41,278 nucleotides of DNA, taken from IMG/VR virus record IMGVR_UViG_3300014682_000025; one strand, written 5' to 3'. Source of the stretch: a virus. Its lineage: Duplodnaviria; Heunggongvirae; Uroviricota; Caudoviricetes. This document shows, in pieces, positions 3,308 through 40,377 of this stretch; the first letter of the stretch is position 1, and every line of letters begins with the position of its first letter. Made by a program: the position numbers and the translations under genes. The notes beneath the pieces are model-generated. The model was given only the letters and a program-made list of their open reading frames with translations, ran no database searches and was not told where the DNA came from.

Positions 3308-3883
3308 CTACGGCAGTGCTGGCCATTCAATATCCTGTGCAGTTGACGTATCAACACGGTTCAGCAATACCCGATACTTTTTCCATGCTTCCAGCAACGA
3401 GATTTCTTCCTCCGTTGCAATTTCCAGATCTGCAGCATCCTGAAGCGGCGCAATATGCTCACTGGCTACCTGCATCAGGTTGTTTTTTGTTTCTTCCGCC
3501 TCCCGGATCCGGAACAGTTTTTCTGCTTCCGTATCCTTCACCCAGGCTGTGCCGTTCCACTTCTGAAACTCCCCTTCCGGGGATAACCAGGTGACATTTT
3601 CCGGTAATGGGCCAAGTTCAGAAATAAATAACGCGTCGCCGGAAGCCACGTCATAGACGGTTTTACCCCGATGATCTTCAACGAGATGCCACGATGCCTC
3701 ATCACTGTTGAAAACAGCCACGAAGCCAGCCGGAATATCTGGCGGTGCAATATAGGAACTGTTTGCTGGCAGACCTGTATGAGGCGGAATATATGCGTCA
3801 CCTTCACCAATAAATTCATTAGTTCCTGCCAGCAGATTATAAATTTTTATGGTCCGTGGTTGTTCACTCATTCTGAATGCCAT
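3308..3883 (-). CDS. tfa: Tail fibre assembly protein Tfa, 191 aa
   Basis: N-terminus [24 protein letters not shown] matches lambda Tfa; start overlaps stf stop (ATGA). Confidence 0.85.
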
Positions 3884-33060: not shown

Positions 33061-34057
33061 TTGCCAGCGCGCGATCGATAAAACGAAATATCAGCTCCAG
33101 TTGGGAGCCATACTTCTCTTCAAATGCCACTGTATCCGTATGCAGCTCGTTGTGATGCTTTCTGCACAAAGGCAACACAAAGAGATCATGTGCTTTTGTT
33201 CCCATTCCGCCCTGCCCGTGACCAATCAGATGATGCGGATCGTCGGCTGGCATACCGCAGCAAGCACACGGCTGTGTCTTAACCCAACGAGTGTATTTCT
33301 CCTTAACCCAGCGGCGACGTTTAGGCAGCTTCATGAAAGATTCCGGAGACTCTGGATCAACGTTGATGCTTACCACCGTCTTTTCCTGTGATGGGTTTTG
33401 TTGCTGGTGGGCGTAAGGCAACGGTGCAAGATTTTTTGTGCGTTGTTTCAATATGCTGGTGGCGGTCTGCTCTCCCGGTACGATGTCGCTTTCGCGGTAC
33501 ACCGAGCAGATTTTTTCCGCTGGTAATCCCAGCGAACGACGCGATACAGCCTCAGGTAGTGCATCCACCACCTGATTGCAGACCGCCCACCAGGATAATT
33601 CAGCCAAAGATAATTCCCGCTCCTGCGTACCGCTTATTGCGTGACGGATGACGTCAATCACCCATGCTGTCAGATTTTGTTGAGCAAGCAGCTCCAGTGA
33701 TTCCGATGTCTGGTCACGCAGTTGGTTGTCGCAGTGCCAGCACAACACCATTGCGCCGGTACCATAACGGTGAATGACTGTTTCAGTGTGATGGTAATCG
33801 CCATTAGGCCACTGGCAGGATGTAACATGACGTAATAGCCAGTCAGACAATGCGCCAACGCCGCCAGCAGCACGAATCACCCGTTCGTTACTAAAAAACG
33901 GTAGCAATGTTTTGTCTTCCGCCAGCGGCTGTGCGAACGGCAGGAACGACTCCGGATGGCAGATTACGCATGCTTTTTGGTTCCGGTTCCACCAGCACTC
34001 GAGGATTATGAAATATCTGTATGGATTCACGGCCCGGCTTAAGGACCACCAGCCCAA
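33044..34057 (-). CDS. ydfU: YdfU-like protein (DUF968) with C-terminal HNH-like Cys/His motif
   Basis: 337 aa; CACCG...HHLIGHGQ...CRKHHNELH near C-terminus. Confidence 0.65.
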   Translation of the reverse strand: MGWWSLSRAVNPYRYFIILECWWNRNQKACVICHPESFLPFAQPLAEDKTLLPFFSNERVIRAAGGVGALSDWLLRHVTSCQWPNGDYHHTETVIHRYGTGAMVLCWHCDNQLRDQTSESLELLAQQNLTAWVIDVIRHAISGTQERELSLAELSWWAVCNQVVDALPEAVSRRSLGLPAEKICSVYRESDIVPGEQTATSILKQRTKNLAPLPYAHQQQNPSQEKTVVSINVDPESPESFMKLPKRRRWVKEKYTRWVKTQPCACCGMPADDPHHLIGHGQGGMGTKAHDLFVLPLCRKHHNELHTDTVAFEEKYGSQLELIFRFIDRALAIGVLA

Positions 34058-34095
34058 GCTCAGGCACCAGAACAGGTCTAAGTAATACCCGCACG

Positions 34096-34374
34096 TTACC
34101 TCCAGATCCGTTGCTGGAAAGTGCGGGACGCACGTGGTGGGCGTTCGGAATAAGGCAGCCTGACAGAGATTATCCAGTGCCGATAGTCGAGACTGAGAGC
34201 TTTCTTAACCTCGAACCCGCGCCTGCGGTAAGAATGAATCAGCCATTCGGCCTGTTCTGCAGTGCATGGAGGGTGCTGGAACCATTCAGACTTGAATGCG
34301 TGAGAATACCGCCCGTGCGTGCAGGCAAGAACGGGCGAATTATCAGAATTGTAATATTTTACGTTGCGTGCCAT
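34096..34374 (-). CDS. Hypothetical protein, 92 aa
   Basis: Track ORF between rem and ydfU; could be a separate small gene or an upstream fragment of ydfU. Confidence 0.35.
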   Translation of the reverse strand: MARNVKYYNSDNSPVLACTHGRYSHAFKSEWFQHPPCTAEQAEWLIHSYRRRGFEVKKALSLDYRHWIISVRLPYSERPPRASRTFQQRIWR

Positions 34375-34440
34375 CGGTTTTCTCCGGTGGCACGGTGTTA
34401 CTCAGCGGGAGTTCAGCCCCGCGCAAGATTGTAGATGAGT

Positions 34441-34692
34441 TTATTCTTCTGCAAAAGCTGAAAAGCCTGCTTTTATTCCGATCTCTTTCAGTGCCTGTAA
34501 TGAAGTGACAAACTCACCTTCGCGCAAGATAAATCCGTCTGTCACTCGACCATCCACAAAATTAATTAACGCAGCCCCATTCTTTCGCAAACACATAATG
34601 CGGTAATGACTAACAAGATTTCCATTTTCAACGCACACAGCATAGAGGCCATCTTCACAAAAAATTTTACGCAGTTCTTCGATGTTCATCAT
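34441..34692 (-). CDS. rem: Rem-like small prophage protein, 83 aa
   Basis: MMNIEELRKIFCEDGLYAV...; position before hokD as in Qin. Confidence 0.6.
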   Translation of the reverse strand: MMNIEELRKIFCEDGLYAVCVENGNLVSHYRIMCLRKNGAALINFVDGRVTDGFILREGEFVTSLQALKEIGIKAGFSAFAEE

Positions 34693-34908
34693 CAGAATCC
34701 TTCCGGATAATTAGCTCTCCCCTTTAAGGGACCATCCCTCTTATCCCTGCGCGCTACTTAAGTATTTTTGATTCTATTCCGGCACCGTCCAGAACTTCAA
34801 ACGCGTTGAAAATAAAAACAAAAACCCGCCGAAGCGGGTTAAGTGCGGGTGCGTTGAGGATGCCTGCCACATCAGAGGTGGCGAGGGATTTCTCCCTCGC
34901 CGGGTCTC

Positions 34909-35064
34909 TTACTCCTCAGGTTCGTAAGCTGTGAAGACAGCGACCTCCGTCTGGCCGGTTCGGATTCGTACCTCGCAGAGGTCTTTCCTCGTTACCAGTG
35001 CCGTCACTATGACGGTTAAACAGATGACGATCAGGGCGATTAACATCGCCTTTTGCTGCTTCAT
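34909..35064 (-). CDS. hokD: Hok-family type I toxin (51 aa; MKQQKAMLIALIVICLTVIVTALVTRKDLCEVRIRTGQTEVAVFTAYEPEE)
   Basis: Canonical Hok peptide; track ORF 34909-35121 extends upstream in frame. Confidence 0.85.
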   Translation of the reverse strand: MKQQKAMLIALIVICLTVIVTALVTRKDLCEVRIRTGQTEVAVFTAYEPEE

Positions 35065-35728
35065 AGCCTGCTTCTCCTTGCCTTTCGGCACGTAAGAGGC
35101 TAACCTACATATGTCTAGCATGAAATTGGCCTCAGATTAATGTTAAGCGTCTTGCAGGACGCGTAATGTTAACTGGGGCTTTTCTCTATCTGCCGTTGGT
35201 GTTCATGCCTGAGGCAGATAGCCTCAAGCACCCGCAGCAATTCTACTTAACTCCCGTCACCTCGCCAATATAAAATCAATCAGAAAGGCGATCCGTAAGA
35301 ACAACAGCAAGACAATAAATTGCCATTACAGCCGCAATAGCTAGCGCACATTTGAGAACCAGCACGACAACCTCCTGTATTGGATATACACCTGCCCTGA
35401 TAAATATGAGGCTGTCTCGTCAGTGCTTCAATACAACTATTGGGTATAGTTTCTGTGATTTTGTTCTGTAGAAATGGAACACAACAACCAGTCACCACCA
35501 ACTCTTCTTTAAATACGCCAAGTCCGACGTAAGCTAACCTTCTAGTCCGCTTTGAGCGAAAGGCGAACACTGGCAATTAGCCCGTAACTATTGAATATAT
35601 TACTAATGACCCTGTTATCGGCACAAATATTTCAGAAGACATAAAAATTACTTATTAATAGAACCAATAAGTATTAACTGAATAAAAAACCTTAAGGCAT
35701 CATCTAAATCTTATATTGCACTTTAACA

Positions 35729-37480
35729 TTAGTGCAGGACTTCATTTAAAGTCGAATTAAAACTCCTCAAGCTCTCAATAATTTGATCAAATATAAAATC
35801 TAAAGCATGGCTATAACCGGATGCCAAAGTTGCGCTATCAAAACCAAGACTAGCTAGATGTTCAATGGATTTATTGACTGCTTCATGAGCTTCAGCGTTC
35901 CTCAAGTCATTATTTATAAATAGAGCTGCTAATGTATGATTGGGTGAATTATACTTTGCAAGTTCATTGGCATGTTTTAGCGCGGATTGCTCTTCATTTT
36001 GCTCATTAATAACACTTGTAAGGTTTAATATTCCTTGCAATAATTTTAGCGTTTGCAATCTTTCAATATCCTCAGCCTTCACCCCCATAGCAATACTTAA
36101 TTTCTTCAATGAACCAGTTTTAATTTTAGTAATGATCTCGTTTATAGTCTTGCATCTAGCTAGGAAATCTTGCTCTTGCATATCGATTGAGGCTACATGA
36201 GCAAGCTTTTGCAGTACAGGATAATTTCTAATGCCTTCTTCATCTAGTTCGTCTCTGTTGTATTCAAAAATATCAGAACTCGATAGGGGAACATCTAAAA
36301 CTCTACCTAGAGACACTAGATTTCCATTAAGCTCAGTTAGTTCTCTAGCAAATCTAAAAGTCTTAGAAACAATATGCTCATTATCTAATGAATTAGTATC
36401 AATAAGGCTTTGGTCTTTCGCATAATCAAACACATGATATATTTCCTTTTCTGGAACTCCTTGGTAAAGATCATAAAAATATATTTTCACTAAGTTCCTA
36501 CCGACTCTAGTACAGCCTCTAAATGCCCATTGCCCGCCATAGCTAGGATCTGCATGATAGTGATTGCCATAAAAAAATGGAATGGCTTCGTATGTCTTAT
36601 CTTTTTCATATTTAGTAAGAAAAGCATCATCAACATATACGTATTCGCCACTACGATAATCGGTAGCTCCCGACATTGTTATCGGTGACTTGTGACCGGG
36701 CCATACTAATGTGTTGACATCTAATTCAGAGCAAAGCTCTGGCTGAACAGATTGAACAGTTCCCCATGCTTGCAGCAATATCCTATCTGTATGGTCAACT
36801 ATTTCAAATTCAATCCAAGGAAGTTCGATTCTAAAGTGATTAGAACCTGATAAGAGTCCGAGTACCTCTTTAGTTCGTTCGATATAGGCTTCGAAGAAAA
36901 AAACTTTTACTCCAACACAACCTTTCATCCATAAATATTTTCTGAGGTAATCATTCCTCATTGTCCATTTAATATCTTTGTTGCTTTTGAAATGATATTC
37001 TCTTGAGACATCGCCTTGCACGACTCCATATGATGGCGAAGAAACCTCATCAAAAATTACTTTTTGTTCATCATCCCCTATGAGCCTTGGTTTTAATCCC
37101 AGTTTCATCCAGACATCTTCGGCCAACAAAAAGGAGTAGTGAAGACTTGAACCCCAAGAAGCTACAATATACCCATAACCGGAGATAGATATATCTGTAC
37201 CCCAAGCTCCACCTTTCTCTGTACAGTCCTGAGTGGAAAATGTGACGACACCGTCACGGGATTCACGTAACACACTTAGATTTGCAACATCATTCTCAGG
37301 AACTACGGCCATGATCATATGAGTGTAATCATAGTCATCTTGATACTTATTTCTTTCGTAATGATGGGTTACAGTAACTTCTCGCTGGGGGTTAGAATTG
37401 TCTTCAACAAATAATAGGTCCTTTAAACCCTGTGGTATTTGCTCAGCCGGTAAAGGAAGCTTTGATAAATAATCAAGCAC
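35729..37480 (-). CDS. Large protein of unknown function, 583 aa, markedly AT-rich; candidate accessory or defence gene
   Basis: Long uninterrupted ORF with GTG start 8 nt after GGAGGG; AT-rich flanks; no domain recognised; C-terminal R-x4-H (LRNAEAHEAV). Confidence 0.7.
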   Translation of the reverse strand: MLDYLSKLPLPAEQIPQGLKDLLFVEDNSNPQREVTVTHHYERNKYQDDYDYTHMIMAVVPENDVANLSVLRESRDGVVTFSTQDCTEKGGAWGTDISISGYGYIVASWGSSLHYSFLLAEDVWMKLGLKPRLIGDDEQKVIFDEVSSPSYGVVQGDVSREYHFKSNKDIKWTMRNDYLRKYLWMKGCVGVKVFFFEAYIERTKEVLGLLSGSNHFRIELPWIEFEIVDHTDRILLQAWGTVQSVQPELCSELDVNTLVWPGHKSPITMSGATDYRSGEYVYVDDAFLTKYEKDKTYEAIPFFYGNHYHADPSYGGQWAFRGCTRVGRNLVKIYFYDLYQGVPEKEIYHVFDYAKDQSLIDTNSLDNEHIVSKTFRFARELTELNGNLVSLGRVLDVPLSSSDIFEYNRDELDEEGIRNYPVLQKLAHVASIDMQEQDFLARCKTINEIITKIKTGSLKKLSIAMGVKAEDIERLQTLKLLQGILNLTSVINEQNEEQSALKHANELAKYNSPNHTLAALFINNDLRNAEAHEAVNKSIEHLASLGFDSATLASGYSHALDFIFDQIIESLRSFNSTLNEVLH

Positions 37481-37747
37481 TTAATAGCCCTCCGTAATAA
37501 TCATGAGTGTTTACTAACACAGTAATCATATCCATTTGGGATGGTTTATGTCTAACCTTCTTTTGTCCATAAAATCATTGCAAGGCTGAAAATTTTATAA
37601 AGACAGATACTACTATGTACCTGTCGCTGGATAATACCGTTATTTTTCAAACTGTCCGCTCTTGGCACAAGGCTGCAAACCATAGTAGTTCTAGCCCTGT
37701 GCCACCGAAGTGTCAATTAATATCTGAACTAATGCTCTTTAATCTCG

Positions 37748-39230: not shown

Positions 39231-39678
39231 TTGCTTTTTCTATAAGTTCGTCAGTTTCACGATCCACTACGGCAGGATCAGCAAAAAGCAGTCCGGACTC
39301 CACCACATCGCCATATTCTTTGTTTAACCCGGCGATCATGTACGTGATGCTTTTTCCGTCACTAATTTCACGATACAACCTGAAATCATTAATCCGGATA
39401 GCCTCCATAATTGCAGGCACTAGCGCCGTGAACTTTTCACGCTTATCCCTGGTGTCGATAGCCTTCCAGCGTTCGAATATCTTCACTCGATTAACGCCAA
39501 GCGCTCGCTGATCAACCGCGCCACCTTCATCTGTGACACGCTGAACATCGATGTTCGGGCGCTCTTTCAAAGCCCAGAATGCTTCAGTGATTAATATCGT
39601 CGCCTGCTCCTGTGTCATTCCTGGTCGACATATCCAGGCATCCAGAGCCTCACGAGCCTGTTCAGGAGTGATTTTCAT
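39157..39678 (-). CDS. Hypothetical early-region protein at the cII/YdaT position, 173 aa
   Basis: Track ORF; overlaps dicC 3-prime end so true start is probably internal. Confidence 0.45.
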   Translation of the reverse strand: MKITPEQAREALDAWICRPGMTQEQATILITEAFWALKERPNIDVQRVTDEGGAVDQRALGVNRVKIFERWKAIDTRDKREKFTALVPAIMEAIRINDFRLYREISDGKSITYMIAGLNKEYGDVVESGLLFADPAVVDRETDELIEKAIAFKLAYRQQYQQKAGWNYEPSFC

Positions 39679-39892
39679 TGTTCAACCGCCCCGCCCGCTT
39701 CGTCTTACGATATTCGTCATAAACTTTGGGATCATACTGAAGCTCCCCGCCAGATGCCTCCTGTAGACGCATCGCGCGACCTTCAGGAACCAGTATCCCC
39801 CAAGCAGCAACACTTGCCAGTCTCACTCCTGCGGCATTGGCAAGCTTTGTTTTGCTGCCAAAAAAAGTAATTGCGTCAACTTTAAGCATCAA
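39662..39892 (-). CDS. dicC: Cro-like regulator DicC, 76 aa
   Basis: Divergent from dicA; sequence recognised as DicC. Confidence 0.8.
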   Translation of the reverse strand: MMLKVDAITFFGSKTKLANAAGVRLASVAAWGILVPEGRAMRLQEASGGELQYDPKVYDEYRKTKRAGRLNNENHS

Positions 39893-39901
39893 AGCCCCCT
39901 C

Positions 39902-39921
39902 TTGTTAGACTTTTCTAACGT
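39902..39921. promoter_or_regulatory. Operator-like dyad TTGTTAGA-CTTT-TCTAACg in the dicC-dicA intergenic region
   Basis: Read from sequence; the same 8-bp arm recurs at 40413-40432. Confidence 0.5.
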
Positions 39922-39969
39922 TATTGTGCGCGGGATACCTAAGTCAAGAAAAATTAGAATTACCTAACT

Positions 39970-40377
39970 ATGGATACAAGAACCCTAGGCCAGCGAGTTC
40001 TGGCGCGACGAAAAGAATTACGCTTAACACAACGAGAAGCTGCGCGCCTCGCTGGAGTTGCTCACGTCACAATTTCACAATGGGAAAGAGACGAAACCCA
40101 GCCAGTCGGAAAACGATTGTTTGCTTTAGCGGATGCTCTGAAGTGCTCACCTACATGGCTAATGTTTGGTGACGAAGACAAGGCACCAGTGCCTGCACAA
40201 GAACTTCATGTGGAAACAGAGCTAACTCCCAACCACAAAGAATTGATCGAATTATTCGATGCTCTTCCATCTTCCGAGCAGGAAGCCTTGCTGTCTGAAA
40301 TGCGCGCAAGAGTAGAAAACTTCAACAAACTCTTCGAAGAAATGCTTAAAGCGCGTAAAAATAAATCAATAAAATAA
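39970..40377 (+). CDS. dicA: XRE-family HTH repressor DicA, 135 aa
   Basis: HTH (LTQREAARLAGVAHVTISQWE); divergent from dicC. Confidence 0.9.
   Translation: MDTRTLGQRVLARRKELRLTQREAARLAGVAHVTISQWERDETQPVGKRLFALADALKCSPTWLMFGDEDKAPVPAQELHVETELTPNHKELIELFDALPSSEQEALLSEMRARVENFNKLFEEMLKARKNKSIK

Follow-up and report, generated by a model that had tools for sequence, protein, structure and literature searches.

An apparently complete hok/mok/sok toxin-antitoxin cassette, without relBE, in a Qin-like lambdoid prophage

How can a hokD toxin gene be expressed when the genes that precede it in Escherichia coli K-12 are missing? The question is raised by virus record IMGVR_UViG_3300014682_000025 (Caudoviricetes), a DNA stretch of 41,278 nucleotides (nt) referred to here as the window, which encodes a Hok peptide of 51 amino acids (aa) on its minus strand. 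In K-12, hokD (relF) is the third gene of the relBEF operon. A first-pass annotation of the window took that arrangement as the norm and proposed that hokD must here depend on a different promoter or antisense arrangement, or on readthrough from an upstream gene for a 583-aa protein. We conclude that positions 34823-35268 very probably constitute a complete, autonomous hok/mok/sok type I toxin-antitoxin cassette of the hokW-sokW (prophage hokD) type, working as the systems of plasmid R1 and prophage Sp5 do. The first half of the earlier proposal can thus be given substance in the form of a promoter-like site, a putative mok, a candidate sok and predicted tac and fbi elements, all belonging to the locus itself; the readthrough half is not needed. 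Coordinates of all features are collected in the table.

The encoded Hok peptide, MKQQKAMLIALIVICLTVIVTALVTRKDLCEVRIRTGQTEVAVFTAYEPEE, is intact, as had been claimed. It belongs to the small Hok/Gef family, matching Pfam PF01848 (HOK_GEF) at 81.6 bits (cut-off 22; E value 2.9e-23), and at the DNA level hok does not differ from K-12 hokD, annotated as 'type I toxin-antitoxin system toxin HokD' (WP_000813254.1). The HokD coding sequence is toxic (bioRxiv 10.1101/2025.08.07.668861). The same study reports that hokD mRNA, like that of hokB, undergoes A-to-I editing by TadA, which converts to Cys a Tyr at a position where Cys is needed for a disulfide. Codon 47 of the window hok (34924-34926, minus strand) is a Tyr UAC codon in a UACGA context, and this context is conserved across all aligned loci.

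The hok reading frame lies within a longer open reading frame (ORF), a putative mok whose ATG at 35121 is 57 nt upstream of the hok start and in the same frame, as expected for overlapping mok and hok. This ORF matches PHROG 251, 'MokW-like host killing' (E value 7.6e-33), and the same 213-nt coding sequence carries a MokW-like annotation in phages VT2-Sakai and HannyBb. In the corresponding locus of strain GF161 the mok start is ATA rather than ATG (equivalent of 35119-35121) and hok is intact, indicating that mok is not kept in every copy.

Upstream of hok the window contains a recognizable hok leader. The Rfam sok model RF01794 matches over its entire length (model positions 1-157 of 157; E value 7.9e-27), with a score nearly twice the gathering score, and this is the only sok or hok match in the window. 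Other Rfam near-matches in the interval (isrK, rsmX, ceN48 and Fungi_SRP) fell below their gathering scores, overlap the hok 3' hairpins or the leader, and were discarded. A sigma-70-like site precedes the leader. The consensus scan that found it returned four sites where 2.1 are expected by chance, which is not significant alone; the call is credible because the start predicted from the site (about 35233) is the very base at which the Rfam match begins and because the TAGAAT -10 hexamer is invariant across seven loci.

An mRNA running from that start to the terminator is predicted to be unusually stable, with a minimum free energy (MFE) of -169.3 kcal/mol (z -7.56 against 100 shuffles). A helix joining its two ends closes the MFE structure and the centroid structure alike. 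In this predicted fold, nt 1-12 of the mRNA (35233-35222) form 12 bp with 34859-34847, the tac-like element GGGUGCUUGAGG pairing with the fbi-like element CCUCAACGCACCC. When about 40 nt are removed from the 3' end, the 5' end is predicted to refold into a local hairpin, nt 3-13 with nt 19-29. A tac-fbi fold-back is the defining trait of hok mRNAs, and 5' refolding after 3' removal mirrors the activation of R1 hok mRNA. The terminator hairpin has seven pairs, five of them G-C, followed by the tail TTTGTTTTTA.

The region upstream of hok was also searched for mok and for sok-like antisense elements, as the first-pass annotation had suggested, and candidates for both are present. On the plus strand, folding points to a candidate Sok RNA whose 15-nt unpaired 5' tail spans the complement of the AUG of mok (35119-35121) and is followed by a long hairpin and a terminal U-run (35180-35183). 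Its MFE is -28.7 kcal/mol (z -5.12), and none of 200 shuffled sequences folds equally well. The candidate has the same length as the complementarity reported for sokW (PMC8621323). The position of its promoter-like site also agrees with the sokW arrangement described in that paper.

From what is established for R1 hok/sok and Sp5 hokW-sokW, combined with the features found in the window, we infer the following mechanism. The constitutive promoter (35268-35240) would produce the hok mRNA of about 411 nt, in which pairing of the tac 5' end with fbi would keep the full-length RNA closed both to translation and to Sok binding. Slow 3' trimming would take off fbi, and refolding of the 5' end would then expose the mok translation start and the Sok target. 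Sok, made from its own promoter, would pair across the mok start, blocking translation of mok and of the coupled hok and leading to cleavage by RNase III. If Sok synthesis stopped, upon prophage loss or induction, Hok would be translated and would depolarise the inner membrane. By analogy, the cassette may help lysis on induction, and it possibly serves in prophage addiction or in the exclusion of other phages.

The closest characterised system is hokW-sokW (mokW) of the Shiga toxin 2 (Stx2) prophage Sp5, or VT2-Sakai, of E. coli O157:H7, to which the 448-bp window locus is 93.8% identical at the nucleotide level over 93% of its length. HokW and the window Hok share 47 of 51 residues, and the four substitutions all lie in the C-terminal tail (VFTAYEPEE in the window, VFVDYESEK in HokW). 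Both loci have a 70-codon mok, nearly identical leaders, a sok region and a lambdoid prophage setting. They differ in the terminator region and in their neighbours: VT2-Sakai hokW-sokW lies among accessory genes of the ead, DUF551 and YgiW types, whereas the window locus lies between the replication genes and rem/ydfU/Q. HokW is toxic and is neutralised by sokW, expressed from its own promoter, partly via RNase III and Hfq (PMC8621323, Takada et al. 2021). In Sp5, mitomycin C treatment leads to the loss of sokW and to the appearance of HokW in the inner membrane; deletion of hokW-sokW delays growth arrest and halves phage release (PMC8621323).

The family was founded by hok/sok (parB) of plasmid R1, whose design is the one predicted for the window locus: a Hok/Gef peptide, an overlapping mok, a cis-antisense Sok positioned over the mok start, and a tac-fbi fold-back that refolds after 3' processing. 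R1 hok/sok is more distant in sequence, with plasmid matches outside the hokD type extending over only about 80 nt at 77-79% identity, and the identity between HokW and R1 Hok is 44% (PMC8621323). R1 hok/sok resides on a plasmid and the window copy in a prophage; the hokD type is not known to act in plasmid-style post-segregational killing.

Several points weigh against the reading of the locus as a working cassette. The evidence for its promoters, its transcript ends, the Sok RNA and its toxicity comes from sequence and homologues. The Rfam match is on the hok-sense strand and so identifies the locus rather than a Sok transcript. The putative sok hexamers TTGCCT and TAACCT match the consensus weakly, scoring under the scan threshold. 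The compared loci are 88-100% identical, leaving almost no independent covariation with which to judge the tac-fbi pairing. Finally, chromosomal hokA, hokB and hokC gave no post-segregational killing (bioRxiv 10.1101/2025.08.07.668861), and therefore an intact sequence is no guarantee of activity.

The last of these points leads to an alternative, namely that the cassette is intact in sequence but silent, a passenger relic like the chromosomal hok loci of laboratory strains. Pedersen and Gerdes (1999), as cited in PMC7232551, regard the K-12 hok loci as probably non-functional, and the ATA in place of the mok ATG in GF161 points the same way. Nevertheless, we consider a silent relic unlikely. 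All predicted regulatory elements are present and conserved in the window locus, and although the DNA of the compared loci diverges by up to 7%, Hok itself changes only by single conservative substitutions. The same locus, at 98.7% identity, is carried by sequenced phages such as HannyBb, and hokW-sokW, at 93.8% identity, is active, with phage yield halved upon its deletion (PMC8621323).

Alternatively, hok could be expressed mainly by readthrough from the 583-aa gene or from the early-right prophage operon, in which case the local promoter-like site would be incidental. The arrangement of genes is compatible with this, as hok, the 583-aa gene, a small 29-aa ORF and the DUF977, O-like and CII-like genes are all on the minus strand, and a minus-strand scan of 35729-35268 revealed no strong intrinsic terminator, only a weak hairpin inside the 29-aa ORF. 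HokW also rises in Sp5 after mitomycin C induction (PMC8621323). Against readthrough as the main source, which we hold to be quite unlikely, the promoter-like site is conserved, its predicted start is the 5' end of the family-wide leader model, and closure by tac and fbi requires a defined 5' end. Moreover, the same leader occurs beside very different upstream cargo, and also on plasmids and in P1-like phages. Because the cassette is found next to unrelated upstream genes and on plasmids, autonomy is favoured and readthrough is unnecessary, although transcription from the 583-aa gene may provide extra input during lytic growth.

An autonomous cassette leaves the difference from K-12 to be explained. 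As the first-pass annotation had noted, no RelB- or RelE-like ORF lies upstream of hok, and the alignment check for relB and relE remnants revealed none in the whole window: tblastn searches of all 41 kb with K-12 RelB, RelE, YdfV and FlxA returned noise only (best E value 0.75; 1.7 for RelB and 5.2 for RelE). The window thus has no relB-relE-hokD operon of the K-12 kind. By blastn, the K-12 locus is 99.3% identical to window positions 31699-35078, and the next alignment begins only at 39399. In a three-way alignment, K-12 identity starts at AGGAGAAGCAGGCTATG, 14 nt before the hok ATG, and the K-12 sequence upstream of this point is the 3' end of relE. K-12 hokD, in the cryptic Qin prophage, resembles the window in hok with its Shine-Dalgarno sequence, fbi element and terminator, as well as in rem, a 92-aa ORF, ydfU and ydfT. 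Everything upstream of -14 has been replaced by relE and relB; gone with it are the promoters of hok and sok, the tac element, the start of mok and Sok in its entirety.

The two forms also differ in abundance. We surveyed 5426 complete E. coli genomes, using window positions 35079-35300 as the leader query. The leader segment is present at 80% coverage or more in at least 2760 genomes and partially in 4320, and the K-12 relE-hokD junction occurs in 1201; the leader-bearing form is about twice as common as the junction. Beyond these genomes, the 448-bp locus is found over its full length in phage HannyBb, in other Stx phages at the level given above for VT2-Sakai, in P1-like phages at 88% identity, and on some E. 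coli plasmids at 87-98%.

Published work on K-12 accords with the alignment. relF/hokD is co-transcribed with relBE, and the inducible accumulation of relF transcript is lost when the relBEF promoter is deleted (PMC3598666); no promoter or terminator separates relBE from the downstream gene (PMC5120126); and integration of relBE shortened an ancestral hokD ORF of about 70 codons (PMC6379469). The first-pass annotation had allowed that hokD might have an independent promoter in K-12 as well, and both the literature and the alignment say that it does not. Given where identity stops, 14 nt ahead of the hok ATG, and given the counts and these three reports, the K-12 relB-relE-hokD operon is, judged by the sequences, the derived and truncated form, and the leader-bearing hok locus the common one. 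The earlier view of norm and deviation is therefore reversed. The rearrangement that brought in relBE would have replaced all sequence upstream of the hok Shine-Dalgarno sequence, leaving K-12 hokD without a promoter, mok, tac or sok of its own and placing it under the relBE promoter. Truncation of the ancestral hokD locus by relBE integration has already been published, and in this respect the finding is already known. That the window strain instead descends from a K-12-like relBE-hokD ancestor and lost relBE by deletion is highly improbable: the 99.3% identity does mark the window and K-12 Qin as close relatives, but the reading is rejected because a deletion cannot create the canonical hok leader, homologous to phage and plasmid leaders, that fills the place of relE, and in addition no trace of relB, relE, ydfV or flxA is left and the window prophage shares with HannyBb a 29-aa ORF, a DUF977 gene and an O-like replication gene that are missing from K-12.

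The apparent isolation of hok in the window has a simple source. The Prokaryotic Genome Annotation Pipeline (PGAP) calls each copy 'hokD' and gives no annotation for mok, sok or the leader, which makes the gene look orphaned.

Table. Positions of the hok cassette, of neighbouring features and of cargo in the variable slot. Positions are those of the window; cargo of other genomes is listed without positions.
Feature	Position	Strand	Basis
hok (hokD/hokW-type) toxin coding sequence, 51 aa	34909..35064	-	ORF list, Pfam, K-12 and HokW alignments
mok-like ORF, 70 codons, in frame with hok, common stop codon	34909..35121	-	ORF list, PHROG 251
hok leader / sok region, Rfam RF01794	35059..35233	-	114.3 bits, gathering score 59
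hok/mok promoter-like site, TTGGCG, 17-nt spacer, TAGAAT	35240..35268	-	consensus scan
Predicted full-length hok mRNA, about 411 nt	34823..35233	-	folding
tac-like 5' element	35222..35233	-	pairs with 34847-34859 in full-length fold
fbi-like 3' element	34847..34859	-	12 bp with mRNA 5' end
Predicted intrinsic terminator hairpin of hok mRNA, then T-run	34823..34840	-	terminator scan
sok promoter-like site, TTGCCT, 17-nt spacer, TAACCT	35078..35106	+	read directly from sequence
Sok antisense RNA candidate, about 71 nt, approximate ends	35113..35183	+	folding
29-codon hydrophobic ORF, GTG start, AGGAGG ribosome-binding site	35276..35365	-	conserved across loci
Promoter-like site of 29-codon ORF, TTGAAG-17-CATATT	about 35412-35440	-	conserved
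98-aa Cys-rich ORF, spurious	35280..35576	-	stop codons in other loci
Variable low-GC cargo slot upstream of hok block	35563..37652	.	other E. coli homologous up to about 35562 and again from about 37653
583-aa orphan gene, sole gene in the window's cargo slot	35729..37480	-	
Slot cargo in K-12: relBE, ydfV and flxA			
Slot cargo in SC423: FRG-domain protein			
Slot cargo in GF161: DUF4145 protein and IS3			
Slot cargo in TH9F11: methyltransferase and SMEK-domain genes			
Slot cargo in O104:H4: QueH			
Slot cargo in HannyBb: methyltransferase fragment and hypothetical protein			

Two small ORFs lie immediately upstream of the cassette. The Cys-rich ORF had been called probably spurious, and we agree: it is interrupted by in-frame stops in two of three other aligned loci (GF161 and TH9F11; it is open in SC423) and has no family match in Pfam, PADLOC, PHROGs or NCBIfam. 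The 29-codon ORF encodes MLVLKCALAIAAVMAIYCLAVVLTDRLSD and has its AGGAGG 5 nt upstream of the GTG. It is intact in all five diverged loci, including HannyBb, with mostly synonymous or conservative substitutions, and 8 nt separate its end from the hok -35 hexamer. Homology with HannyBb starts only about 70 nt upstream of this ORF, at the conserved TTGAAG-17-CATATT site. The segment is present in 1323 of the 5426 complete genomes and is sporadically annotated (WP_000960667.1) as hypothetical or as 'membrane protein'. Conceivably, this hydrophobic peptide of 29 aa acts together with hok as another small membrane toxin.

Beyond these ORFs, between a DUF977/Ren-like gene and the hok block, lies a 2.1-kb slot with a GC content of 0.32-0.42, compared with about 0.5 in the flanks. 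Its cargo differs from strain to strain, and judged by this content it behaves as a prophage moron or defence hotspot. In the window the cargo is the 583-aa gene. Its product has no match in Pfam, PADLOC, PHROGs or NCBIfam, and Pfam searches with 42 family members also found none; a sequence profile search of the PDB gave no match, and Foldseek returned nothing at E value 0.001 or below in the PDB or BFVD. None of the 5426 complete E. coli genomes has the gene. The exact protein occurs in E. coli draft genomes, relatives at more than 90% identity occur in Klebsiella, Raoultella, Providencia, Kosakonia, Erwinia and Citrobacter, and the family, of about 585 aa, reaches 37% identity in Vibrio, Shewanella, Pandoraea, Paracoccus and Bradyrhizobium.

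The AlphaFold model of the 583-aa protein, a confident one (predicted local distance difference test score, pLDDT, 89), combines an N-terminal part rich in beta structure with a helical C-terminal part. Residues 525-532 form a DLR-x4-H motif that is invariant in the family, with a spacing that we take to be that of the HEPN RNase motif (Rx4H). Genes for relatives are found in a P4-like island with a D5 primase and an integrase in Enterobacter, and beside HNH and reverse-transcriptase/SLATT genes in Shewanella. A role in defence or abortive infection is plausible. More tentatively, the hok/sok block and the 29-aa ORF may together be the constant downstream edge of a cargo hotspot found in Qin-like lambdoid prophages, with K-12 relBE as one cargo whose arrival clipped the hok leader and the 583-aa protein as, possibly, a new single-gene abortive-infection or defence effector; we regard this wider proposal as possible rather than probable.

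The surrounding window is a complete-looking lambdoid prophage, whereas K-12 Qin is a cryptic remnant. It encodes large and small terminase subunits, portal, a protease-capsid fusion, tape measure, tail fibres and endolysin, as well as an O-like replication protein, a CII-like activator and an immunity region of the dicA/dicC type. The hok cassette is in the early-right region, at the same place as in HannyBb. Positions 39399-39982, where alignment to K-12 resumes, are only 86.6% identical to dicC/ydfX. Elsewhere in the window we identified two cspA-type thermoregulator 5' untranslated regions (Rfam RF01766; 28216-28601 and 31112-31504, both minus strand; 112.8 and 158.8 bits), which correspond to the cold-shock gene paralogues (cspB/cspF-type) of Qin-like prophages. 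An IS009 RNA match at 3342-3540 (minus strand; 220.9 bits, gathering score 117) lies in or beside the tail-fibre region. No tRNA genes were found in the window.

As an ordinary intact member of a known family, the window hok locus opens no new question, and the neighbouring cargo slot with its 583-aa orphan is the more promising lead. The finding mainly corrects an annotation habit, in which an intact type I cassette looks like an orphan toxin when it is set against K-12. The K-12 relBEF operon is the rearranged exception, and this matters wherever the presence or absence of 'hokD' is used in toxin-antitoxin surveys or in studies of persistence.
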